A stretch of DNA of 64,000 nucleotides from NCBI GenBank assembly GCA_951406725.2, contig OX597819.1:11408001-11472000 (forward strand). Reading direction: 5' to 3'. This document shows positions 8,570 to 64,000 of this stretch, piece by piece. Both the position numbers and the translations under genes were made by a program. This stretch comes from Octopus vulgaris. Its lineage: Eukaryota. Under the pieces are notes generated by a model. The model was given only the letters and a program-made list of their open reading frames with translations, did no database searches and had not been told where the DNA came from. How positions within the stretch are numbered: position 1 is the first letter of the stretch; every line of letters starts with the position of its first letter.

Positions 8570-9038
8570 CAGGGGTGAGCCATTCAGACTGGTCATCCAT
8601 TTTGGCGAGAAGATCCCTATTATAATACATCAGTTCCACACATTTACCCTGGATTCCATTTCGGACAACTGCACAAACATTTGCCATTTCACACATGTAT
8701 GTAAACAAATTCCTTTCTTTAAAAAATTTCAATTCATTTTCTTTTTTCAATTTACGTTTCTATACACTTTACGCAAATATTTGATTAAACAACTAAAACA
8801 CTTCACATTTCGAACATGTACGTAAACTACTTCCTTTATTGCAAATCTAACTTTCTTTTCTGGCTTTTAACTCAAATTTCTATACATTTTACACACTCTG
8901 TCGCTATACTTGCATAAAAAATTTCTTTCAGCTGCTAATATTTATTTCTTTTCCTTCCACGCTTTACATTTTTCCACATTTCATTCAAATTACAATTTCT
9001 ATCTTTAAGTAACTTTCACCCTTTCTTTTTCACATAAA

Positions 9039-12000
9039 ATGCCACCGAAAAAGAGAAGTCACATCGGCCGCCATACTGCAGCAGCAGCTGCGAAAAAGGC
9101 GAAGCGCAGCGCCATAAACGCTTCTGCTGTTGCTGCACAAAGGGCTTCTCGACTGGCTACAACCGCTGCGGTTGCTTCATACGATGCTGCTTCCACGGCT
9201 TCAGACGGTCCGGAAACAAGGTCGAAGCGCAGCGCCATAAACGCTTCTGCTGTTGCTGCACAAAGGGCTTCAGAGGACCCACAACAAAGGGCCACTCGAC
9301 TGGCTACAAACGCTGCGGTTGCTTCATACGATGCTGCTTCCACGGCTTCAGACGGTCCGGAAACAAGGTCGAAGCGCAACGCCATAAACGCTTCTGCTGT
9401 TGCTGCACAAAGGGCTTCAGAGGACCCACAACAAAGGGCCACTCGACTGGCTACAAACGCTGCGGTTGCTTCATACGATGCTGCTTCCACGGCTTCAGAC
9501 GGTCCGGAAACAAGGTCGAAGCGCAGCGCCATAAAGGCTTCTGCTGTTGCTGCACAAAGGGCTTCAGAGGACCCACAACAAAGGGCCACTCGACTGGCTA
9601 CAAACGCTGCGGTTGCTTCATACGATGCTGCTTCCACGGCTTCAGACGGTCCGGAAACAAGGTCGAAGCGCAGCGCCATAAAGGCTTCTGCTGTTGCTGC
9701 ACAAAGGGCTTCAGAGGACTCACAACAAAGGGCCACTCGACTGGCTACAAACGCTGCGGCTACTGCTGCTTCAACATTTTCGACACATTCCCACGACTCA
9801 GACCAGCAACGTTCTACATTCCAGCGGAACAGTCGACGCCGCGGTCTGACGAGTCCAAACAGACCTTACTGGCATCTACGTGCTTTCAAGTATGAGCTCA
9901 ACTTCAATTACTCGATGCACGCTGACATAAATATTGGGGAAATGTTCTTCAATTGCCAATTCTGCAATGCTAAAAAGTGGGCTGGGGAACCACCTGCGAT
10001 GTGCTGCTTAAACGGTAAGGTCAGCTTGCCCCCTCTTCGGGAGCTGCCAGACCCTTTGAAGGAATTACTTACTGGTTCCACCTCAAGGTCATCAAAATTC
10101 CTTCAACTCATCAGGAAATACAATTGTGCATTTCAGATGACTTCTTTCGGGGCTAACGTTGTCAGAGAAAGTGGTTGGATGCCTACTTTCAAGGTCCAGG
10201 GCCAGGTGTACCACCTTATTGGGTCACTCCAGCCACTACAAAATTGCAAACCTTCATTCATTCAAATTTATTTTATTACAAATTATAATAGGCAACTTGA
10301 TTTGCGTTTAGACGTAATTCCACAACATGCAAACACTAACGCTGACAATTTCGACAGGGACGTGCTGCTCACTCTGCAAAACATGCTTCATGACCACAAC
10401 AGCTATATTCGCAGTTTCAAATACGCCTTGGAAACAGCCCCTTCACCAACATTCACCATTGTCATCGATGCTGACAAAAGGCCTTCTGGGGAGCACGCGC
10501 GGCGATATAACGCTCCTTCGTGCAATGAAGTGGCCATAGTTCTCCATGGTGAACAGCACAAGCAGCGGGACATAGTTCTTCAAAGCCGCGACAGTGGTCT
10601 TCAGCGTATTAATGAGACGCATCGGTCATATGACGCCCTGCAGTATCCCCTTCTTTTTCCGTATGGAGAAGACGGGTACCATTTCGGCATTCCTCACCAC
10701 AAACCAAACGAGCCCTCGGCTGCGACATCTAAAACTGTTTCATGTATGGCTTTTTACTCATACCGCTTCATGACAAGGCATAATGATTTCAACCCCCTGC
10801 ACAGATCACGGCAACTGTTTCACCAATTTGCAGTTGACATGGCTGCAAAGATGGAGTCCGAGAGACTGGGCTTCATCAAATTGAATCAGAAGCAGCTGCG
10901 CTCAGACTCCTACATCCATTTGCGTGATGGCATCAGGAATGACACTGACGCCCGCAATATCGGCAAAATGTGCATTCTCCCCTCAACCTATACAGGGGGC
11001 CCACGGTACATGCACGAGCGAACGCAAGACGCTATGACTTACGTTCGGCATTATGGGCGACCCGATTTATTCATTACCTTTACATGTAACCCAAAGTGGG
11101 TTGAGGTAACGCGAGAACTTCTCCCAGGGCAGCAGTACTGTCATCGCCATGATATTATTGCAAGGGTTTTCAGGCAGAAACTGGCTAAGCTCATTCTTTT
11201 AATAAAAAAAGGCCAGGTTTTTGGGCCTGTTAACTGCCACATGTATACTGTTGAGTGGCAGAAAAGAGGGTTGCCACATGCGCACATTTTGCTTTGGTTG
11301 GTCAACAAAATAGACCCAACAGTTCTTGATGATCTCATTGCAGCAGAAATTCCGGACCCAACTGTTGACCGGCACCTGTACGACATTGTGAAGGCACACA
11401 TGGTACACGGTCCGTGCGGTCCTGGTTTTCAAAAGTTCTCCTCATGCCACAAAGACCACGTGTGCACTAAACGGTACCCAAAGAGGTTCGTGGACGAGAC
11501 CCAGACCGGCCGCGACGGATACCCACTGTACAGAAGAAGGCACCCTGACAATGGTGGATTCACTATAACGTTACGGGGTCATCAAGTGGATAATAGGTGG
11601 GTAGTGCCGTACTGTCCATTTCTGATGAAAACTTTTAACGCTCACATAAATGTGGAGTTCTGTCATTCAGTTAAGTCTATAAAGTATATATGCAAATATG
11701 TTAACAAGGGTTCTGACGCTGCCATGTTTGGCCTTCAAAAGGACAATAGCATGGACGAGGTGTCACAGTACATGGCAGGTCGGTACATAAGCAGTGGTGA
11801 AGCTTTTTGGCGGATATTCGGGTTTCCACTTCACCAAAGGCACCCCGCCATCATACAACTAGCGGTTCATTTGGAAAATGGCCAATGAATTTACTTTACT
11901 GAACAGACTGCAGCTGATTTGGCGGCAAATCCAAAACAAACAACTTTGACCGGTTTCTTTAGGCTTTGCCAACTTGACACATTTGCTAAAACACTTTTAT

Positions 12001-14010
12001 ACCCTCAGGTCCCGTCCTACTACGTGTGGTCAAACAACAATTGGGTGCGTAGGAAGTCGGGTCAGGATGTTGAAGGACATCCTGGTGTCAAGTTTAACAG
12101 TTGTCTAGGAAGAGTATACACTGTACCTCCAAACCAACATGACTGTTTTCACCTGCGCCTTCTCCTCCATGAGATTTTAGGCCCACAAAGTTTTCAAGAC
12201 ATCAGAACTGTTGATGGTGTATTATGTGATACTTTCCGTGAAGCCTGTTTTCGGCGTCGACTTTTGGAGGATGATTCACAATGGGGCGCCACTATGGCAG
12301 AAGGTGTTTCATTAAAATCTCCTAAAAAAATAAGATCGCTTTTCGTTATTCTATTACTATGGTGTGACTTGGCTAATCCCGCCTCTTTATGGCTTACCTA
12401 CAAAGATGATATGTCTGAAGATTTCCTGCATCACGCTCAATCGCTACATCCATCAATGGAGGTCGGGTACACTGACCTCATTTACAACAGGGCGCTGCTT
12501 GAAATCGAAGATACTGTACTCGATATGGGCGGTAGTGCCTTGCCGGTCTATGGCCTACCTTCAACAAACCGGGAAGGCACAAACACTCTGTCTTCACATT
12601 TGCTGCGTGAGACATGTTTTAATGTTGACGAGCTTGCCGAGTACATAGCCGACAATGAGCCAAAGCTCATTCCAGAACAGAAGTTCGCTTACAACTCCGT
12701 TGTTAATTCAGTCCGGGCCAAAGCTGGGGACATTTTTTCCTGGACGCTCCTGGGGGCACTGGGAAAACTTTTGTCAACAAATTAATATTGGCTGAGATTA
12801 GGCGAACACAAGGCATTGCCCTAGCTGTGGCATCATCTGGAATTGCGGCTACTTTGTTGCCAGGCGGCAGGACAGCTCACTCTACTTTCAAACTCCCACT
12901 TGACTTAGCGAAGACTGAGACACCAACTTGCAACATCAGTAACAGCTCCGATCAGGCAGAAGTCTTCAGACGATGCAAGCTTATCGTTTGGGATGAATGC
13001 ACGATGGCCCACAGAGGTGCTCTTGAGGTACTAGATAGATCTCTCAGAGACATCAAACACTCTTCAGCTCCCATGGGAGGCATAACACTTCTTCTTTCAG
13101 GGGACTTCCGACAAACACTTCCCGTTATTCCCAAAGGGACTAGAGCTGATGCTGTAAGTGCGTGTCTTAAGTGGTGAAGACTCTCAAACTTCACACCAAT
13201 ATGCGTGCTCATATGCGACGTGATATCACATCAGCAGCATTTTCTCACACCCTCCTTGCACTTGGCGAAGGCAAAATACCAGGGGATGAAAATGGTAATA
13301 TTGCCATCGATTCCATTTGTACCATTGTTAACACGCCTTCTGATCTCAGAGATGCAGTCTTCCCAGATCTACAAGCTAATTATCAGAATATGGATTGGAT
13401 TGGCCAAAGGGCTATTCTGGCCCCGAGGAATAAAACTGTTCACCATATTAATGATGAAATGCTAAAACTCATTCCTGGGGATGTCTATGTATATAAGTCT
13501 ATTGATACAACTCCTGACCCAGACGACGTCATCAATTATCCAATAGAGGTACTCAATTCCTTTGAGCCCCCCGGACTACCACCACACATTCTCAAACTTA
13601 AAGTTGGTGCCCCTATAATGCTCATTAGAAATTTGGTTCCCCCAAAACAATGTAATGGCACACGTTTGATCGTTAAGTCCTTATCTCCCAATCTGATTGA
13701 GGCCACCATTATCACAGGGTGCGGTCGAGGCAACGTTGTGCTCATACCTAGGATGCATCTTTTCCCATCAGGAGCAGACCTACCTTTCATATTTCGGAGG
13801 TCCCAGTTCCCAGTAAGGCCATGTTTCGCAATGTCAATTAACAAAGCGCAGGGTCAAACACTGTCTGTGGCAGGAATACATTTGGGAGAGCCATGTTTCT
13901 CTCATGGTCAGCTTTATGTTGGCTGCTCACGTGTCGGCAGCAACAGTGATGCTTTCGCATTCCTTCCACAACGAAAAACAAAAAACATTGTGTACAAGGA
14001 GGTTTTATAG
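9039..14010 (+). pseudogene. Helitron RepHel protein (HUH Rep plus PIF1-like SF1 helicase), disrupted
   Basis: Rep motifs DLFITFTCNPKW, VEWQKRGLPHAHIL and IKYICKYVNKG; helicase motifs DAPGGTGKT, IVWDE, GDFRQTLPV, FAMSINKAQGQT and HGQLYVGCSRV. Lesions: TGA at 11886-11888, frameshift in the T-run near 12733-12738, deletion/frameshift near 13171. Confidence 0.93.
9101..9760 (+). repeat. 147-bp (49-aa) coding tandem repeat, about 4.5 copies, in the RepHel N-terminus
   Basis: GAAGCGCA.CGCCATAAA recurs at 9101, 9224, 9371, 9518 and 9665; the first unit lacks 24 bp. Confidence 0.95.
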
Positions 14011-17599: not shown

Positions 17600-18665
17600 A
17601 TTGCTTCGGTTCGTGCTCTTGTTTGATGAGGCTGGGGTCATCCCAGATTAGTGGTCCCAGATTAGTGGTCCCAGAGGAATCATCATGTGTAGAGCCGACC
17701 AGGTCCACCAGTAGTTTCCTATTTCTTTACTGCCCACAAGGGGCTAAACACAGAGGGGACAAACACGGACAGACAAACGGATTAAGTCGATAAGACCGAT
17801 TCCAGTACGCAACTGGCACTTAATTTATCGACCCCGAAAGGATGAAAGGTAAAGTCGACCTCGGCGGAATTTGAACGCAGAACGTAACGGCAGATGACAT
17901 ACCTATTTCTTTATTACCCACAAGGGGCTAAAGACAGAGGGGACAAACAAGGACAGACATAGGTATCAAGTCGATTACATCGACCCCAGTACGTAACTGG
18001 TACTTAATTTATCGACCCCGAAAGGATGAAAGGCAAAGTCGACCTCGGCGGAATTTGAACTCAGAACGTAACGACAGACGAAATACCGCTAGGCATTTCG
18101 CCCGGCGTGCTAACGTTTCTGCCAGCTCGCCGCCTTACTGGTCCACCGGTAGTTTCCATCGCTGGCGGTCCCGTACCAGCCCCTCTGCATCATCCAAGGT
18201 GACGTTGAGCCTCTGGAGATCTTTCCCAATCACGTCCGGCTGCCTGGTGCCTGGCCTGCCACGAGCCCTGTTCCACTCCGCAGCTGCTACGTTGATTTAG
18301 AGTGAAGTCGGGTAAGATGGTCTCACGGGAGACAAAGGACCCACGCATGCGACGGATGGGAGGCTGCGCGTACGCAATTCAATATTGGAAACGTGATGGT
18401 ATCATCTGATAGTCTAGATGATCTTCAGGGTTCTGCTACCGAAGCCGTCGATCCTCTTTGCCAGGATCTTCGAGAGGGACCATTTTTCTTCCGCATACAG
18501 GAGAATGGAGAGGGCTTGATGCGTTCTAGATGCGGAACTTCGTCTTCCAGGACATAGAGCCATATCGCAAAATGGGCTTCCACAGGGAGTAGATGAGGCC
18601 GGCGACCAGATCAATTCTGCGGCTGGTCTCCAAGGTCAGGTCTCCATTATTGGTGGCTGTGGAGC
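17600..18665 (-). mobile_element. Degenerate RTE LINE 3' portion, interrupted by a SINE A dimer
   Basis: Minus-strand LSILLYAEEKWSLSKILAKRIDGF...W..ARGRPGTR..DVI.KDL..LNVTLDDA..LVRDRQRW are RTE motifs. Confidence 0.8.
17720..18135 (-). mobile_element. Dimeric SINE A with 18-bp target-site duplication
   Basis: Two tandem units; GGTCCACC(A/G)GTAGTTTCC at 17702-17719 and 18140-18157. Confidence 0.88.
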
Positions 18666-20118: not shown

Positions 20119-21270
20119 CGATAAATTCGACTAACACCGTTACGAACGCTAACCACACTAGCCCTACCACAACTACACACACCGATACTATCAGCAACAC
20201 TGCGCAAACACTACCACCATCACTGCATAAATACCTATTTCTTTACTACCCACAAGGGCTAAACATAGAGGGGACAAACAAGGACAGACATAGGTATTAA
20301 GTCTATTACATCGACCCCAGTGCGTAACTGGTACTTAATTTATCGACCCCTAAAGGATGAAAGGCAAAGTCGACCTCGGCGGAATTTGAACTCACAACGT
20401 AACGACAACCGAAATACCTATTTCTTTATTACCCACAAGGGGCTAAACACAGAGGGGACAAACAAGGACAGACATAGATATTAAGTCGATTACATCGACC
20501 CCAGTGCGTAACTGGTACTTAATTTATCGACCCCGAAAGGATGAAAGGCAAAGTCGACCTCGGCGGAATTTGAACTCACAACGTAACGACAGCCGAAATA
20601 CCGCTAAGCATTTCGCCCGGCGTGCTAACGGTTCTGCCAGCTCGCCGCCTTACCAACATCATACAACCACAGTCACAACATCACAACCACCAGCACTCCT
20701 ATAATTAAGTTAACCATCACCACTATTAACCACAACCGGTGCTACCTACCCCGCACCACCTCCCTTACCAACAAAATCCGACCACCAACGCCACTACCAC
20801 CACAATCACCACCACCACCACATCACCATCGCTACTAACACCACCTCCACCACCACCACCATCACCATCGCTACTACCACCACCTCCACCACCACTACCA
20901 TCACCACCACCACCACCACCACCACCACCACCATCACCACCACCACCACCACCACCACCATCGCTATTAACACCACCACCACCCACCACCACCACCACCA
21001 CTACCACCACCACCACCACCACCACCACCACCACCATCACCACCACCACCACCATCACCACCACTCACACCACCTCCACCACCACCACCACCACCACCAC
21101 CACCACTACCACCACCACCACCACCACCACCACCACCACCACCACCACCACCATCACCACCACCACCACCACCATCACCACGCTACTAACACCACCTCCA
21201 CCACCACCACCACTACTACCACAACCACCACTGCCACCACCACCACCACTACCATTATCACTACAATCAC
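19600..21270. repeat. (CAC)n/(CAA)n/(TAC)n low-complexity tract, interrupted by a SINE A dimer
   Basis: Direct reading; the source of the poly-T/P/V/G ORFs. Confidence 0.95.
20230..20650 (-). mobile_element. Dimeric SINE A
   Basis: Two tandem ~184-bp units plus head. Confidence 0.9.
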
Positions 21271-23703: not shown

Positions 23704-24264
23704 ATTGTTGAAAAACATTGTTGAAAAATATTTAGTTTTGCTCAGACATATCAACAGTTACGGCAGAGTAACGTCAACTGCACATAATGTGTACACATGA
23801 AGAGTCGTTAACGCGCCGAGCAAAATGCTTAGCGGCATTTCGTCTGTCTTTATGTTCTGAGTTCAAATTCCGCCGAAGTCGACTTTGCCTTTCATCCTTT
23901 CGAGGCCGATAAGTAGCAGTTGAGCACTGGTGTCGATGTGCTCAACCCGAAAGTTGCTGGCTTCGTGCCAGAATTTGAAACTAATATTTATGCAATGATG
24001 TGAGGAAATTTTCATGTCAGCGCTTTTCGTTGTTCGAAATTTTTCAAGCACAAATGCGTTTGAAAAGCTTATTCAGAAACTTTCTTCCATCTTATCTGTT
24101 TTAACCCGCTTCTTTTAAAGATTTTCCAATATTATTATAAATTATAATTAAAGAAAATCTGTCTTCATTCTAGTCATTCTGTGATTGTGTGTGAAATGAA
24201 GAACTGCATACTGATTACATTATTTACATTTGACGAATATTTGTCCTCATCTTGTTTGTTGTTA

Positions 24265-24312
24265 ACACAACGTTTCGGCTGTTAATACAACCCTCCAGCT
24301 GTCTTCAGGTGT
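24265..24312 (-). ncRNA. Minimal type I hammerhead ribozyme in a PLE-type terminal repeat fragment
   Basis: Minus strand: ACAC CTGAAGA c AGCTG..CAGCC GAAAC GTT GTGT. Stem I ACAC/GTGT, stem II GCTG/CAGC, palindromic AACGTT at stem III. Confidence 0.8.
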
Positions 24313-25011
24313 CATCGGAAAATTTCGAATCTGGGTTCTCATTCTTAAGGTATTTTTCGATGTTGTTGTTGTTGTTATTATTATTATTATTATTATTATC
24401 CAGGTCACTGCCTGGAATCGAACTCGGAATCTTGGGGTTAGTAGCCCGCGCTCTTAACTACTATGCCATATGCCCGTGGGTTAGTAGCCCGCGCTCTTAA
24501 CCCAAAGATTCCAAGTTCGATCCAGACAGTTAGGCTGGAGGTTATATCTGCCGAAACGTTATGTTAACAACAAACAAGATGAGGACAAATATCCGTCAAA
24601 CGTAAATAATGTAAATAACTCCTCATCTCTTAAATATAGAACTTCGTACTGATTATTATAAAGAAAGTCATGGCTGCATTTGTAGACGCAATAACTCTCC
24701 AATGTGTCCAAGCAATCAAGGACAGTTGAGGTCTTGCATTTGTAAGATTTGTATCTGTTGCTCCGCAAGGTGCCATTCTGTTGCGAACACAGCTCATTTT
24801 TAGTTAAGTGAACAGAAGCAGTGTGAAATAACCTGCTTTAACACAAAAAGCATAACGCACTTCCCCATCCGAGAACCGAAACAACGACCTTATGATTGTC
24901 AGTGCAACAACCTATGTACTAGGCCACCCACCTCCACATTTAAGCTGTGGTGGATTAAACCAGATAATTTTTTCTATTTACTTTTGCTGTTATTTGTCGT
25001 AGGATGCTATA

Positions 25012-36411: not shown

Positions 36412-37063
36412 GATTGAGAGGAAGATTGAACGGAAAAAAGAGGGAGCGAGGGAAAAATGGGTAGGATTCAACGGTTCAACATCATGAAATGGCGAGAAGA
36501 AAGAAGCTGAGTGAAAGAGAGATAATAATGGCCACCCGGTCGAACTAGGGTGAGTAAACACAGGTTTGTATGTGAGAACCGTGTGTGTGTGTATGTGTGA
36601 ATGGAGATAAGTGGGTGCTTATGTATGTGTGGGCGAGCTTAAAATAATGTGGGCCTGTGTGTATGTGCATAAATAACCTAGTGTGTATATTTTGTGGAGT
36701 GATGTGCGTTTCATGTGCTGGGGGACATGTGTGTGTGTGCGTATGGACGTGTGTACTTACATGCGTGTGCGAGGTTATCATATGTGCGTATACATACATA
36801 TATATATTATATATCATATATTATACATATTTACATATACATGTATGTATATCTATCCATTTACCCCCTCTCTCTCTCTCTCTTTCTCTCTCTCTATATA
36901 CATACATTTACATATACATACAAGTATATGTATTTATATTTATATATGTTTATATATAAATATGCACCTCTATATATATATGTATACATCTATGAACATA
37001 TGAATGCATATGTACGTATATATGTAAGTATTTATATATATATATATACATATATATATATAC

Positions 37064-37158
<95 letters not shown>

Positions 37159-37349
37159 TTACATTATATAAAAGGGCTTAGTAAAATAAATTACTTTGCC
37201 GCATACTGAATTCATTAGAAATAGCAGCTAAAAAACTTTTTAAAACTATTTCTAATACTTAAAGAAAACCTCTCTCATATAGTGCTTGCTCAACTCAACT
37301 CACGAAAGTTTGGGGTAAAGACATCAAAAAATCAAATGCAAAGGTTATT

Positions 37350-37401
37350 TGAGAACGTACGTTTCAAGATTAGTCAACACGACACTTCTATCATCAGCTC
37401 A
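37350..37401 (-). ncRNA. Type I hammerhead ribozyme (inverted unit)
   Basis: Reverse complement of the 38231-38282 motif. Confidence 0.85.
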
Positions 37402-38230
37402 GAAACTCCTTGGTTTGGATTTGAAAACACTGAAAGTGAGAGCATACCCTTTCGGCTTCTCATCGCTTTCGAAGATCTGCTCGTAACTAACAGTGCTAAC
37501 AAACTCAAATATGCAAGCGAAGAATTTCTGTTCTCCTTTCCACCAGCGTGGGTTAAAATCAGCAAACACTATGCTTATTTCGGTAAAATCCGAAGCATTA
37601 ATTAGAGGGAGATTAATTATAATTTCAACAATTGAGGGTAAAATTAATTAATTATTAATCAATTTCACCAAGTGTTCAGTATGCAAAGGGACCATTTAAG
37701 GCGAATTCAAATTATTACATTATATAAAAGGGCTTAGTAAAATAAATTACTTTGCCGCATACTGAACTCATTAGAAATAGCAGCTAAAAAACTTTTTTAA
37801 AACTATTTCTAATACTTAAAGAAAACCTCTCTCATATAGTGCTTGCTCAACTCAACTCACGAAAGTTTGGGGGTAAAGACATCAAAAAATCAAATGCAAA
37901 GGTTATATAATGTAATAATTTGAATTCGCCTTAAATGGTCCCTTTGCATACTGAACACTTGGTGAAATTGATTAATAATTAATTAATTTTACCCTCAATT
38001 GTTGAAATTATAATTAATCTCCCTCTAATTAATGCTTCGGATTTTACCGAAATAAGCATAGTGTTTGCTGATTTTAACCCACGCTGGTGGAAAGGGGAGA
38101 ACAGAAATTCTTCGCTTGCATATTTGAGTTTGTTGGCACTGTTAGTTACGAGCAGATCTTCGAAAGCGATGAGAAGCCGAAAGGGTATGCTCTCACTTTC
38201 AGTGTTTTCAAATCCAAACCAAGGAGTTTC

Positions 38231-38282
38231 TGAGCTGATGATAGAAGTGTCGTGTTGACTAATCTTGAAACGTACGTTCTCA
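38231..38282 (+). ncRNA. Type I hammerhead ribozyme, predicted cleavage after 38278
   Basis: TGAG CTGATGA t AGA..GTC gtgtt GAC..TCT t GAAAC GTAC GTT CTCA: full core, stem I TGAG/CTCA, palindromic AACGTACGTT at stem III. Confidence 0.87.
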
Positions 38283-38790
38283 AATAACCTTTGCATTTGA
38301 TTTTTTGATGTCTTTACCCCCAAACTTTCGTGAGTTGAGTTGAGCAAGCACTATATGAGAGAGGTTTTCTTTAAGTATTAGAAATAGTTTTAAAAAAGTT
38401 TTTTAGCTGCTATTTCTAATGAGTTCAGTATGCGGCAAAGTAATTTATTTTACTAAGCCCTTTTATATAATGTAATAATTTGAATTCGCCTTAAATGGTC
38501 CCTTTGCATACTGAACACTTGGTGAAATTGATTAATAATTAATTAATTTTACCCTCAATTGTTGAAATTATAATTAATCTCCCTCTAATTAATGCTTCGG
38601 ATTTTACCGAAATAAGCATAGTGTTTGCTGATTTTAACCCACGCTAGTGGAAAGGGGAGAACAGAAATTCTTCGCTTGCATATTTGAGTTTGTTGGCACT
38701 GTTAGTTACGAGCAGATCTTCGAAAGCGATGAGAAGCCGAAAGGGTATGCTCTCACTTTCAGTGTTTTCAAATCCAAACCAAGGAGTTTC

Positions 38791-38842
38791 TGAGCTGATG
38801 ATAGAAGTGTCGTGTTGACTAATCTTGAAACGTACGTTCTCA
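38791..38842 (+). ncRNA. Type I hammerhead ribozyme, predicted cleavage after 38838
   Basis: Identical to 38231-38282, shifted 560 bp. Confidence 0.87.
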
Positions 38843-39350
38843 AATAACCTTTGCATTTGATTTTTTGATGTCTTTACCCCCAAACTTTCGTGAGTTGAGT
38901 TGAGCAAGCACTATATGAGAGAGGTTTTCTTTAAGTATTAGAAATAGTTTTAAAAAAGTTTTTTAGCTGCTATTTCTAATGAGTTCAGTATGCGGCAAAG
39001 TAATTTATTTTACTAAGCCCTTTTATATAATGTAATAATTTGAATTCGCCTTAAATGGTCCCTTTGCATACTGAACACTTGGTGAAATTGATTAATAATT
39101 AATTAATTTTACCCTCAATTGTTGAAATTATAATTAATCTCCCTCTAATTAATGCTTCGGATTTTACCGAAATAAGCATAGTGTTTGCTGATTTTAACCC
39201 ACGCTAGTGGAAAGGGGAGAACAGAAATTCTTCGCTTGCATATTTGAGTTTGTTGGCACTGTTAGTTACGAGCAGATCTTCGAAAGCGATGAGAAGCCGA
39301 AAGGGTATGCTCTCACTTTCAGTGTTTTCAAATCCAAACCAAGGAGTTTC

Positions 39351-39402
39351 TGAGCTGATGATAGAAGTGTCGTGTTGACTAATCTTGAAACGTACGTTCT
39401 CA
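39351..39402 (+). ncRNA. Type I hammerhead ribozyme, predicted cleavage after 39398
   Basis: Identical to 38231-38282, shifted 1120 bp. Confidence 0.87.
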
Positions 39403-39684
39403 AATAACCTTTGCATTTGATTTTTTGATGTCTTTACCCCCAAACTTTCGTGAGTTGAGTTGAGCAAGCACTATATGAGAGAGGTTTTCTTTAAGTATTA
39501 GAAATAGTTTTAAAAAAGTTTTTTAGCTGCTATTTCTAATGAGTTCAGTATGCGGCAAAGTAATTTATTTTACTAAGCCCTTTTATATAATGTAATAATT
39601 TGAATTCGCCTTAAATGGTCCCTTTGCATACTGAACACTTGGTGAAATTGATTAATAATTAATTAATTTTACCCTCAATTGTTG

Positions 39685-39737
<53 letters not shown>

Positions 39738-40059: not shown

Positions 40060-40239
40060 CTTTTTTATTATTTTTTTTTTGTTCTTTTCTTCCCTTTTAC
40101 GATCCCTCTTGATCGAAAACCTACGCCACCCCCTTTTTTTTCTTTCTTTTGTTTTTTGTTTTTTTCATCCCCCAAAAGAAAAGCTCTACCTTGTAACTTG
40201 TCCCATCTGTGTGCAGCCCTGTGTGGCCAATAAAGAAAC

Positions 40240-40240
<1 letters not shown>
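40060..40240 (+). mobile_element. 3' UTR-only fragment of the Tx1-like LINE, inside (TATC)n
   Basis: Matches the reverse complement of about 62043-62190 (TTGATCGAAAACCTAC...TGTCCC.TCTGTGTGCAGCCCTGTGTGGC.AATAAAGAAAC). Confidence 0.88.
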
Positions 40241-40301
<61 letters not shown>

Positions 40302-47055: not shown

Positions 47056-48267
47056 GATGGATGGATGGATGGATGGATGGATGGATGTACACATATTTAC
47101 AAACACGTGTATATATTATCTTCCGTTTTTAATGCTTTGAAATTTTCATTTTAAAGAAGGGCAGGTCCCCAAATTAGAATCAAAGAATCACCGCAAGAAT
47201 TTAGACAAACCCAAAGAGGAATAATAACATTGATGAATTTGAGAAAACCGCTGCATCCTCTTCCTGTTCGTCTAACATGTTGTATTTGTAAGTTGGCATT
47301 TCTTTGCCTGAAGCCTCTACCTTTTCCAGATTGGCATTTAGACATTTACAGATGAAAACCAAACGTGCCATTAATTATGGGTACAAATAAATACTGTAAG
47401 TTTGAATGCACTTCTAAAATACAGATATATGTCCACGGGTGGAGACTTGGAAGCCGAATAATGGGCATCTATTAATTATTTAAAATTTATTTTGACAATA
47501 GACGTAGGTATTGCTATTTGGGGAATAAGCGTTCAAAGTTAGCTTGATTAGAAATATACGTATAGAACAAATTTTGGCAATTTTCCATCCGAAATATTTT
47601 ATAATTTATGAGAAAACTGCAAAAGTGAAACAATCCTCTCTGTATGGAATCATTCTCTCATCTATGTCTGCATGTTTATGAAACGTTATACACACTGTCT
47701 GCCGAGTTATATTTATGAAGACACACTCTGTTGTGGCGGTGGTTATTCATTTTTTTTAAATGTATGTTTAGCAAGGAATTATGTAAGCTTTCTTCTCGGT
47801 GTGTGGCTGGGATGTAAACTTCTTAACTACAAGGACAGACTAATCTCTGCTCATCGATCAATGCTACATTGCATAAAATGGAAGTCCAGATACGCCGCCC
47901 GACGCAAACAACAACACACACACGCACACACACTCATACGTCTATATATATATGTATGTATGCATGTATGTATGTATGTATGTATGCATGTATGTATGTA
48001 TGTATGTATGTATGTATGTATGTATATATATATTTATATATATATGTATATATGTATGTATATATATATATATATGTATGTATGTATGATTTGAAAACCC
48101 CACTAGAATGGGAGAAAGCGCTAATGATCTAAGTGATATGATATATATATATAAAAAATGTAATATATAAATAAATATCTGTAAATATAAACCATCCGAT
48201 CTTCTGAGTACCTCATTTCTTCTAATATATAATACCTGTACATCATCTCCAAACCTTCTAATATATA

Positions 48268-48387
<120 letters not shown>

Positions 48388-48430
48388 ATATATATATTTA
48401 TATATATGTATGTATGTATATATGTATATG

Positions 48431-49501
<1,071 letters not shown>

Positions 49502-50891: not shown

Positions 50892-51307
50892 AGGCAACAA
50901 GCTGGCAGAAACGTTAGCACTCCGGGCGAAATGCTTAGTGGTATTTCCTCTGCTGCTACGTTCTGAGTTCAAATTCCGCCGAGGTCGACTTTGCTTTTCA
51001 TCCTTTCGGGGTCGATAAATTAAGCACCAGTTACGCACTGGGGTCGATGTAATCGACTTAATACCTATGTCTGTCCTTGTTTGTCCCCTCTATGTTTAGC
51101 CCCTTGTGGGTAATAAAGAAATAGGTATTTCCTCTGCTGCTACGTTCTGAGTTCAAATTCCGCCGAGGTCGACTTTGCTTTTCATCCTTTCAGGGTCGAT
51201 AAAATAAGTACCAGTTACACACTGGGGTCGATGTAATCGACTTAATCCGTTTGTCTGTCCTTGTTTGTCCCCACTGTGTTTAGCCCCTAATGGCAGTAAA
51301 AGAAATA
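50892..51307 (+). mobile_element. Dimeric SINE A (184-bp internal period)
   Basis: GGTATTTCCTCTGCTGCTACG at 50940 and 51124. Confidence 0.9.
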
Positions 51308-52268
51308 ATAAACACACTAATTCTATTTCACTGGAGTAGAGAGGGCAGCCATTGTTGAGGTTGTGAATAGCGACGAAATGATTTTGACAAACTTAACTCA
51401 TTGTTTGAGCGACCGGACGATTAATCAAACCATCGATTAGTTAATTAGTTACATAGTTAAGTAATTGACAAATAAAGAAGAAAGAAGTGAGGTAGTACCA
51501 GTGCCTGTGTCTATTATTGGCATAATTAACCTCCCGAAATGCAACAAAATATGTTTCACATCAAGATGCTTGCAAGACAAATACAAAAACTAAATCACTT
51601 TCAATTTTATTTTCCAAACAGAAAGAAAAAGGCTGATGATTACCTCCAGGGTCAGAATTGGCAATAATTCATTATCGACATCCCAGGTCTCCACTTGGAT
51701 TTTACAAATGACTTCACACGTACAACTTACATCGTTGCTCATAATTCTTGGTGCCTTTCATTTCGCTAGTAAGCGCCTAGACACTGGATGAAGAAATTCC
51801 AAATCACCTCTGCATATATATGCAGTTGTGACGTTCGAGAAACTTTCCTCCTTGTGCCTGGATATCCAGGTTGATCCAATAATTACATGTAAACCGTGAA
51901 AACCTGTTGCCTCAAAAAAGGTTGTACCATAAATTCTATCTGAAATAGAAAATGATGCTTCTATATATTCTATTATTTGGAGGATTGTGAAATAAAATCC
52001 TAGGGAGATAGTAATGATTATAGAGTGAGTTACAGATTTTAAATTGTTATTTATTAGTGAATGGTGTGCTCAGGTGACGGATACACCAGAGGCTAGTAAG
52101 ATTGCTGTACTTAGTAAAGGGATTTGAAATGGATTAAGGGGAAAAATATAAATGGATGTAGCAAGCGCGTTGTATTGCACCGTTGAAAAGGGCAACATTA
52201 CTTTGATATCAAGTCAACAGTTGACAAGGAGAAAGTCACACTGTGGTACCTATATGTTGACTATGGTT

Positions 52269-60418: not shown

Positions 60419-60657
60419 TATACAGAAGATGAGAGATTTTGGTGTTCAGGAGGCCCAAAAGGCAGGTAAAGCTATGTAGGTGCTACGGAAGGACCGCTGT
60501 CAGACTCCCGGTTCAATAATAGTTGGAACGACAACTGTAACAACCATCATATACTTTTATTCTCATATTTCCCTTTATACTTCCTGTAACTCTCCCTTTC
60601 CAAAATACGTTCTTATATTGAACTCTACTATTACCTTCATGTTAACTCTCTCGTATC

Positions 60658-60705
60658 GTCTCTGATGATGGGATATCTTTTGTATCCCTGAAACAGTTGT
60701 AAGAC
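60658..60705 (+). ncRNA. Type I hammerhead ribozyme
   Basis: GTCT CTGATGA t GGGATAT..GTATCCC t GAAAC AGTT GTA AGAC: full core, 4-bp stem I, 7-bp stem II. Confidence 0.8.
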
Positions 60706-60770
60706 TACTTTTCTCTTTATAAATGTCTTAGAAATTTCACACTTCCTTGGCTTTGTTTTCTCATTTAATT

Positions 60771-60842
<72 letters not shown>

Positions 60843-62042: not shown

Positions 62043-64000
62043 GTTTCTTTATTAGCCACACAGGGCTGCACACAGACGGGACAGATTACAAAACAGAGCT
62101 TTTCTTTTTGGGGGAGAAAAAAAAAAGGTGGGGTAGGTTTTCGATCAAAAGGGATCGTAAAAGGAAAAAAAAGAAAGAAAAAAAGGAAAAGAAACAAAAG
62201 AAGAAAAAACGATCAATAGTGATCGTGTATCACAGTGTCATGATGTAAGGTGTAAAGGGGGAAGCAGATAAGGTTTATCCGTGGGCAGAAAAGCCTACGG
62301 AAAAGACCACGGTAACCTCGGTCAATATTGTTACATGTTACCACATTTGTTTGCAAGTAGGTAACCCCCTGTTTTAAGTTTCCGGGTTCATAGGATTATG
62401 CTCAAGGTGGCTTCGTCATTCATACGTGCCATCATTGCTACATTCACCCATCTTTTTTTAAACATTCGCTAGACAAAACTTGCCTCTCTACTCTCACTTT
62501 CCTTTTCAAGTGGTACTTGAAGAAGTTGATGAGAGATTGACTAGAGAGAAAAGTGTTTGTCTCCAAACCTTTCAGACGCGTCCACCAGATACATTCTTTC
62601 GCCATAGCCACAAGGATGATGAAAATAGCTTTTCCTTCCCGTTTGAAGGAAGGATGCGTGACAATATTGACGATAGACTCGGCTGATAAACCGACTCGTC
62701 CCACACGTGACAGCAGTTGTTCGACATAAGCCCATAGGTCGGAAATTGTTGGATACTGCACGAGTGCGTGCAGAACGGTTTCGTCGCTCTGACCGCATCT
62801 CGGGCAGGTCGGCCCCGTGTTTCTCGAGCCGTGTCTGTAGAGCTTATCCCGAACGGGTAGCGCTTCTCGGTAGCACTGCCAGGCCAGGGATCTCTGGAAG
62901 TTGTCCATGGGCCCTGGCCCGAAAGTCGTCCTGAACAGGCGAGTCAGGTATTCCTCGTCGACGTCCAGGTTCGCCCCGAGCTCGTCGTCGTACCTCCCCT
63001 CCACTAATCCCCTATAGAATGCTTGGGTTGTGTTGAAGTCACTCAAGATCGACCCGGGACGGCATAGTTGCTTGAGAGCAACGCGACACTCGCGGTGCCA
63101 TTCGCCCTTCTCGGCCTCTTTTTGATCCACGACTGCAGTTCGGTCATGGAGACGAGTTGCGGGAAAGCGTGCCTCACAAACGGCGACTACACCTGTTCAC
63201 CGTCATCTACATAGAGCCTGAGATGTCGCAGTCTCAGCGCGTGTCTGCACATCATCAACCACGGCATGCCCAGTCCTCCTTTTAACGGGTGTTGACAGCA
63301 AATAGATCGCCTGACCATCGGGACGCATCCTTTCCACAAGAAGCGAAAGAGAATGCGTTCTAGTTTGGTGATGGTAGGGTCGGGACAAGGCACGACGGTC
63401 AGGCGGTAGTAGACGACGGACGCGATGTACGAGTTCGCCACCTCCGCCCGACCTTGTCGGGACAGTTTCCTCTGGGCCCATTGCCTGGCGGGAGTGACCA
63501 CCCTACTCGTTATCTCGTTCCAGTTCTTCTCCATTTGGAGGTCCGGACCAAACCAGACCCCGAGCAACTCGACCGGACCGTCGGTCCAGCGTCCCACGAC
63601 GGAGGCGCTGGTGGACGGCATGGGCTTGCTTCTCCAGGTGCCGAGTCGCAAGCCCACTGATTTTTCCCGGTTGATTTTCGCTCCTGTCACCGCTTCGTAG
63701 TCTTTCAGTGTCTCGCCGACCTGCTCGATGTGCTCGTGGCTAGACACTATGACGGTGACGTCGTCCGCGTATGCAGACACGCTCGTCCCGCATCCCAATT
63801 CTCGCGGGATGCCCCTCAGAGTTGCCAGCTTCCGCAATAATGGCTCGAGAGTCAATACGTAGAGAAGCGACGAGAGGGGGCATCCCTGGCGAACCGAGCG
63901 TGCAATGTCGAAAGGTCTCGATAGATGTCCATATACGCGAATTACCGAACGGATTCCTCTGTACAAAGAGGCTATCCATCCGCGGAAGACGGGACCGAAG
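62043..64000 (-). mobile_element. Tx1/L1-clade non-LTR retrotransposon, 3' portion (extends beyond the window)
   Basis: RT motifs SVRQGCPLS..LY.L.LEPL and SAYADDVTV; C-terminal CPRCGQSDETVLHAL zinc knuckle; 3' UTR ends AATAAAGAAAC and abuts (TC)n. Confidence 0.93.
62444..64000 (-). pseudogene. LINE ORF2 (reverse transcriptase plus zf-RVT-like domain), disrupted
   Basis: In-frame stop at 63187-63189 and a frameshift near 63110 split the ORF. Confidence 0.88.

Follow-up and report, generated by a model that had tools for sequence, protein, structure and literature searches.

Among the closest described systems is PAc, a Poseidon PLE of the green anole. The Poseidon protein, which prefers AT-rich DNA, cleaves and extends both strands in vitro, and reverse transcription starts at two fixed internal RNA sites downstream of the hammerhead (PMC11167929). 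Target homology is not needed and the RNA is unprocessed (PMC11167929). The stretch between the two start sites corresponds to the 30–40-nt genomic tail, and RNA-seq reads ending at the hammerhead cut were not found for this element (PMC11167929).

PLE insertions are further marked by partial tandems, an adjacent inverted 5′-truncated copy, tails, and (TA)n targets, the same bias being cited for Neptune (PMC8557442). Head-to-head inversions of PLEs have been described, with self-priming proposed as their origin (PMC3846280). Twin priming and dual priming were defined for L1 (PMC2837659); a search on twin priming together with Penelope returned no paper on PLE inversions, as judged by title or the start of the abstract. 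Non-LTR retrozymes were defined in a study that proposed copying of circles by PLE enzymes (PMC7229834), and retrozymes have been linked to PLE terminal repeats in a preprint that leaves the mechanism open (bioRxiv 10.64898/2026.07.22.740005). Recently active Penelope-like families have been reported for Octopus vulgaris in a paper whose main text does not mention ribozymes or retrozymes (PMC13282606). No mapped retrozyme insertion ends and no tail of ∼90 nt were found in the literature searched, a body that excludes most subscription papers and Repbase.

We analyzed a 64,000-nt stretch of the Octopus vulgaris genome (contig OX597819.1), referred to below as the window. Two arrays of hammerhead-bearing repeats, A and B, share one layout: (TA)n, an inverted piece, a forward partial tandem, and (TA)n again (Table 1). 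The unit of A is 76% identical to that of B. In both arrays, the inverted piece is a 5′-truncated copy adjoining the forward part head to head, and it matches the unit from 39040 to 38284 in A and from 49351 to 49210 in B. Offsets (+n) are counted from the first base past the predicted ribozyme cut.

Table 1. Coordinates of the two arrays, their flanks, and the motifs within them
Feature	Positions	Strand	Details
Array A	37154–39692		unit 560 bp
Left (TA)n-rich microsatellite of A	36895–37154		pure TA from about 37070
Inverted piece of A	37154–37906	−	753 bp; unit +6, one full period, to +202
Head-to-head junction of A	37903–37906		4-nt overlap TTAT common to inverted and forward pieces
Forward tandem of A	37903–39692	+	3.19 units of 560 bp; start +185
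Hammerhead, A inverted piece	37350–37401	−	descriptor core 37397; span mapped from forward copy
Hammerhead, A unit 1	38231–38282	+	core 38235; predicted cut after 38278
Hammerhead, A unit 2	38791–38842	+	core 38795; palindromic helix III; predicted cut after 38838
Hammerhead, A unit 3	39351–39402	+	core 39355; predicted cut after 39398
Conserved block	39529–39688	+	+131 to +290; A versus B
Proximal end site	39583–39600	+	+185 to +202, TTATATAATGTAATAATT, last unit; predicted in AU-rich loop
15-bp hairpin before right end	39641–39673	+	predicted; folded one period earlier, 39081–39113
Right (TA)24 of A	39689–39736		39689–39692 common to unit, the distal end site
Array B	48555–49445		unit 568 bp
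Left (TA)n-rich microsatellite of B	48261–48556
Inverted piece of B	48555–48696	−	142 bp; +60 to +201, B numbering
Extra AAAA at head-to-head junction of B	48697–48700
Forward partial tandem of B	48701–49445	+	1.31 units of 568 bp
Hammerhead, B	49094–49156	+	core 49100; GUA triplet; predicted cut after 49150
Right (TA)24 of B	49442–49489		49442–49445 common to unit

The forward units of A show a single difference, G at 38086 versus A at 38646 and 39206. The A at the latter two positions (units 2 and 3) is nearly absent from other copies in four sequencing runs, hinting at local unit duplication or a mixed source array. The inverted piece of A differs from the forward units only within its outer half (37211–37544); besides the shared SNP, the differences comprise three homopolymer contractions and two C-to-T changes (plus strand), and these five may be sequencing error.

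The arrays resemble animal non-LTR retrozymes, which are non-coding, low-GC tandem units with one type I hammerhead each and have been proposed to be non-autonomous PLE derivatives (PMC7229834; bioRxiv 10.64898/2026.07.22.740005). [quoted passage not shown] At 560–568 bp, the units exceed the 150–450 bp first described (PMC7229834) and lie within the 51–972 bp of bioRxiv 10.64898/2026.07.22.740005. An antisense 126-aa frame of the repeat units gave no significant Pfam match, and inspection of the arrays by eye revealed no apparent LTR, primer-binding site, or polypurine tract. The ORF of an autonomous PLE (reverse transcriptase plus GIY-YIG endonuclease) is absent from the non-coding units. 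Six ORF stretches of the window, chosen out of 125 ORFs, were scanned; none carries a PLE domain, and no autonomous PLE partner was identified among them. The BLAST matches listed for the arrays against the 64-kb window include no third array copy.

The window comes from an animal genome very rich in microsatellites and holds several other repeats and gene fragments. A Helitron-like Rep/helicase gene occupies 9009–14010 on the plus strand in three frames and starts with a 147-bp coding tandem repeat (STPR repeats). On the minus strand, a COX3 fragment at 51758–52069 (Pfam E 2.8e-25) is probably a nuclear copy of mitochondrial DNA, and a LINE C-terminal fragment at 62444–63196 has a zf-RVT match just below the Pfam cut-off. 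The region downstream of this LINE fragment resembles 40073–40245, and (TATC)n follows both. Dimers of a 184-bp SINE-like repeat are found at 17718–18087, 20229–20602, and 50940–51288.

A descriptor search found one type I hammerhead motif per unit on the forward strand. The whole window gave seven matches (five in the arrays and two elsewhere) versus a total of two in 20 shuffled windows. The hammerhead core and helices are preserved between units that are 24% apart, and self-cleavage of the units of A and B is predicted from these motifs. Hammerhead families are absent among the Rfam matches listed (150 of 283 in one search and all matches in two others), the top matches among those 150 being microsatellite hairpins. 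Helix III, a short palindrome, forms well only as a duplex of two copies (dimer energies −9.8 and −10.8 kcal/mol), and a dimer-dependent hammerhead type with self-complementary helix III has been reported for metazoan PLEs (PMC4209133). Isolated hammerheads fold no better than shuffles (z 0.74 and −0.28), a result that is uninformative either way because it is expected of dimer-dependent motifs.

All four outer ends of the arrays adjoin (TA)n, in agreement with a sequence-only reading of this DNA that had placed both arrays in such microsatellites. At the right ends, the unit match runs to 39692 in A and to 49445 in B, and the TA run (pure in A) begins at 39689 and 49442, respectively. Possible right breakpoints lie after +290 to +294 in A and after +286 to +290 in B (aligned, in A numbering), and exactly one position is common to both intervals; the earlier claim that the arrays end at the same position is thus true to within 0–8 nt. 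The distance from the predicted cut is 291 nt in A (to 39690) and 292 nt in B (to 49443), close to the roughly 290 nt given before. Read on the minus strand, the left ends are sense 3′ ends entering (TA)n, like the right ends. They lie at +201/+202 in A and at +199 to +201 in B numbering (aligned +193). These outer ends of the inverted pieces fall 10 nt (A) and 1 nt (B) beyond the TTATATAA motif, which bears out the description of both arrays as starting with an inverted segment near an internal motif. The two end sites are spaced 88–93 nt apart in A and 90–96 nt apart in B.

Pure (TA)10+ makes up 3.2% of the window, and the chance that both insertions lie in it is ∼0.001. Coincident right ends would have a chance of ∼0.016 if ends were uniform over the unit. 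Alternating TA runs of at least 4 nt occur at four sites in unit A and six in unit B; if ends are confined to such runs, coincidence amounts to about 3 of 24 pairings (0.13). The two copies alone are modest evidence. The two insertions and the contig junctions described below display a PLE insertion signature of a fixed 3′ end, variable 5′ truncation, and a partial tandem. A 30–40-nt tail, another PLE feature, was not found; the arrays have two end sites ∼90 nt apart, a spacing two- to threefold that described.

Conservation between the arrays changes sharply at the distal end site. Over the 160 nt that lead up to the right end, A and B are 92% identical, compared with 62% over the 160 nt that follow (+131 to +290, 148 of 161 columns; +291 to +450, 99 of 160). 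Folding of the unit RNA is more stable than that of shuffled sequences (z −6.5 for A and −4.1 for B). In the predicted fold of the conserved block, a long stem surrounds an AU-rich loop with the proximal site and is followed by the 15-bp hairpin before the distal site. A two-sequence fold contains 11 double changes among 136 predicted pairs, which is weak because the fold was derived from the same two sequences. The predicted structured block upstream of the start site fits a protein-binding region, and we infer that +131 to +290 is likely the binding and start region for the reverse transcriptase. Homogenization among truncated copies could give the same conservation boundary. Taken together with the junctions and contigs, the boundary at the distal end supports a fixed internal start site, a feature already known in kind. 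Of the single fixed priming site proposed earlier, "fixed" therefore holds and "single" does not: two sites are likely, since the left ends recur near +200.

Contigs from other sequencing runs contain the same repeat. The unit or part of it is present in 20 of 24 runs listed, and short-read contigs of four runs (X1, X2, X3, and X14) were aligned on one period at 80% likeness. The numbers of contigs aligned per run, 4848, 898, 1835, and 192, are not copy numbers. None of the listed runs with the unit was identified as RNA, X3 being at most a guess, and neither point was used as evidence on expression. In X14, the unit gives way to (TA)n at 39132, one period before 39692, in 11 contigs, which may stem from fewer loci; of the 24 loose ends listed (out of 271), this one has the highest contig count. 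This exit is absent among the six loose ends listed for each of X1, X2, and X3. One X3 contig leaves at 39031 into (AT)n, which is the aligned position of the left end of B. Head-to-tail joints across the unit boundary occur in all four runs (6, 1, 1, and 2 contigs) and strand-switch joints in two, X14 and X3. The X14 strand-switch joint (38988/39024) lies at the motif where the forward part of A starts, and the X3 joint may reflect an inverted repeat internal to the unit. A drop in depth to 20–39% past the distal site in all four runs was rejected as evidence because contig depth is not copy number, the region is more divergent, and X1 recovers. Two metagenome scans gave 0 matches to unit copies. 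Two viral matches and one prokaryote match, considered as extra copies, were discarded as chance, only an 18–23-nt seed being common.

The best reading of the arrays is that they are likely a non-autonomous PLE passenger, i.e., a non-LTR retrozyme. It is probable, in our judgment, that they were inserted by a borrowed PLE reverse transcriptase-endonuclease that copied from two fixed sites inside an RNA longer than one unit; the analysis covered two full insertions. A source array would be transcribed into a multimer, of which the dimer-dependent ribozyme would cut only part. The PLE protein would bind the conserved, structured block (+131 to +290), and the enzyme would nick both strands of the (TA)n microsatellite. 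One nicked target strand would prime at ∼+290 and copy toward the RNA 5′ end over 1.3–3.2 units, yielding the forward tandem. The other would prime at ∼+200, most simply upstream on the same RNA (twin priming), yielding the inverted piece. Finally, microhomology (TTAT in A) or the addition of a few A residues (B) would join the two cDNA ends. The offset between the two sites would correspond to the PLE "tail", here ∼90 nt.

The unit overlaps the TA run by 4 and 4 nt at the right ends and by 1 nt (A) and 2 nt (B) at the left ends. Annealing to nicked (TA)n, as the sequence-only reading had proposed, stays conjectural at overlaps of this size, and the start site of the Poseidon enzyme has no target homology. 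A few base pairs with (TA)n could assist priming at the distal site and would be dispensable at the proximal one. The 5′ inversions and partial tandems that had been named as PLE hallmarks are backed by the relevant parts of PMC8557442 and PMC3846280.

The inner ends of the inverted pieces bear on the form of the template. In A, the outer end of the inverted piece and the forward start share 18 nt (modulo the period), and the inner end is at +6 to +10, 5–9 nt past the predicted cut. This geometry fits second-strand priming further upstream on the same RNA with run-off at the ribozyme-cut end, and the second cDNA of A would accordingly have run off a cut 5′ end. In B, with an overlap of 83 nt (modulo the period) and an inner end at +60, the agreement with twin priming is looser than in A. 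Priming on two separate RNAs may also account for these inversions. The chance that at least one of the four truncation points lies within 10 nt of the cut is ∼7%. A template length of "4 units + 294" was discarded as evidence, as this sum holds by construction.

A template that is circular or multimeric, as suggested before, follows from the forward part of A crossing the cut site three times: more than one unit is required by the anatomy. Circle and linear RNA are not separated by these data, which lean weakly toward linear, and given the PLE reading we consider a linear multimer slightly the better description. The variant within the PLE reading, in which the same enzyme and start sites would be used on a monomeric circular RNA copied round and round, corresponds to the published retrozyme model. 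It would account for the near identity of units within an array (one difference in the 3.19 forward units of A) and for minority alleles shared by units, such as the G at 38908 that is common to array units and makes up ∼2% of the depth in X1. Circular RNAs have been found for related repeats of coral, mussel, and axolotl (PMC7229834), and circles have been proposed for PLE tandems (PMC4209133). However, the inverted piece of A stops next to the cut, as a cut linear end predicts, although at p ∼0.07 this is weak. The same private A in two consecutive units is unexpected from independent copying errors unless it was later duplicated, and the Poseidon enzyme uses unprocessed linear RNA in vitro (PMC11167929). 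We consider the circle doubtful.

The inversions could also have arisen by self-priming, that is, by fold-back of a single cDNA (or from an antisense template) in place of a second target-primed event. Such an origin has been proposed for head-to-head PLE inversions (PMC3846280), and the 4-nt overlap at the junction of A would be usable for it. The junctions are not palindromes, however, and loops of ∼380 nt (A) and ∼510 nt (B) would be needed. The allele of the inverted piece is, in A and B alike, that of the 5′-most forward copy, not that of the copy a fold-back would read; this identity argues against fold-back, an argument that is void if the mutations post-date insertion. Furthermore, the outer ends recur near +200 with (TA)n directly attached, and both target strands are extended by the Poseidon PLE (PMC11167929). 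Fold-back is therefore an improbable source of the inverted pieces.

Even less probable is a satellite-like repeat spread and trimmed at the DNA level, by recombination or repair with (TA)n at TATA/ATAT words and without reverse transcription. Three of the four outer junctions do lie at or beside alternating TA words, of which the unit has only four to six, and the shared private SNP suggests some local duplication. Against this origin stands a strict polarity: in A as in B, each outer end is a sense 3′ end, and 5′ truncations of variable position form the inner ends. The overlap at the left end of A is only 1 nt, the preservation of the hammerhead core and helices extends across units 24% apart, and conservation stops at the distal site.

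We regard it as very improbable that the inverted pieces or unit numbers are assembly artefacts. In A, the contractions and substitutions across the outer half of the inverted piece look like long-read error, and no contig of the four runs spans an array. Yet two independent arrays have the same geometry with different junctions, short-read contigs include strand-switch joints as well as a proximal-site junction with (AT)n, and the unrelated hammerhead element at 24214–24650 is likewise head to head. Slippage of the reverse transcriptase as the source of the flanking (TA)n is disfavored, as the flanks pass gradually into compound microsatellites of a kind common in the window.

The PLE-mediated insertion that we favor can be compared with what is known of each system. 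PAc and the arrays have in common two fixed internal sites past the hammerhead, an AT-rich target, extension of both strands, and genomic ends on those sites. PAc differs in being autonomous and in having its sites in an AC-rich stem-loop inside the start of the ORF, 30–40 nt apart and without target homology, whereas the arrays have no ORF and AU-rich sites ∼90 nt apart, the distal one with a 4-nt (TA)n match. Naiad and Neptune are like the arrays in their (TA)n targets, target-site duplications that are unresolvable because they cannot be read within (TA)n, and partial tandems with an inverted 5′-truncated copy (PMC8557442). In contrast, both have 30–40-bp tails and encode reverse transcriptase and GIY-YIG, and Naiads are described as being without canonical hammerheads (PMC8557442).

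Twin and dual priming of L1 resemble the proposed route in that the second target strand primes on the RNA to give a 5′ inversion joined by microhomology (PMC2837659). In L1, first priming takes place on the poly(A) 3′ end and the second at variable internal sites (PMC2837659), whereas in the arrays both sites are internal and recurring and poly(A) is absent. As for retrozymes, the relevant portions of PMC7229834 and bioRxiv 10.64898/2026.07.22.740005 contain no mapping of insertion ends, inversions, or (TA)n targets. The preprint favors local amplification from a PLE terminal repeat, whereas the arrays here look inserted as ready-made tandems (bioRxiv 10.64898/2026.07.22.740005).

Two further hammerheads are present in the window. 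One is an unrelated minimal hammerhead element at 24214–24650, whose core is at 24308 (minus strand); it comprises a minus-strand copy at ∼24214–24345 and a partial head-to-head plus-strand copy at ∼24525–24650. Between them are tRNA-like SINE pieces, as judged by eye; ARAGORN found no tRNA at 24214–24650. Both copies match as far as ATAATGTAA, at which point the minus copy breaks off and the plus copy continues like a tail; ATAATGTAA is also the motif found at the proximal end site of A and B. The window has nine occurrences of the 10-mer ATAATGTAAT, of which eight lie at the proximal site in the arrays and one at the end of the 24-kb minus copy (∼1 expected by chance); this sharing was spotted post hoc and serves only as a lead. 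The other hammerhead, a single type I motif at 60658–60705 (core 60662), is unlike those of the arrays and lies in a ∼350-bp piece (60425–60772) between (TA)n(CA)n and (CA)n, of which no other copies were found in the window.

A more far-reaching version of the PLE reading, offered tentatively and with more doubt than belief, would have a dimeric PLE enzyme insert ready-made tandems by priming both strands on a linear, ribozyme-trimmed multimer at sites fixed 90–93 nt apart. The hammerhead would then define the template's 5′ end rather than make a circle, and the ATAATGTAA end motif in common with an unrelated hammerhead family would be a common start signal.

The principle of a fixed internal start, two sites, an AT-rich target, and inversions is already published, which limits the surprise. 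What is unusual here is the 90–93-nt offset between the ends and an inverted piece that stops 5–9 nt from the ribozyme cut. The means by which animal non-LTR retrozymes move, with respect to both the enzyme and the route (circle, linear multimer, or local amplification only), is stated to be unresolved in PMC7229834 and bioRxiv 10.64898/2026.07.22.740005. The arrays link retrozymes to the insertion signature reconstituted in vitro for a Poseidon PLE. If the more far-reaching version is true, the junctions of many genomic copies would read out the template form and start sites of animal retrozymes in vivo.
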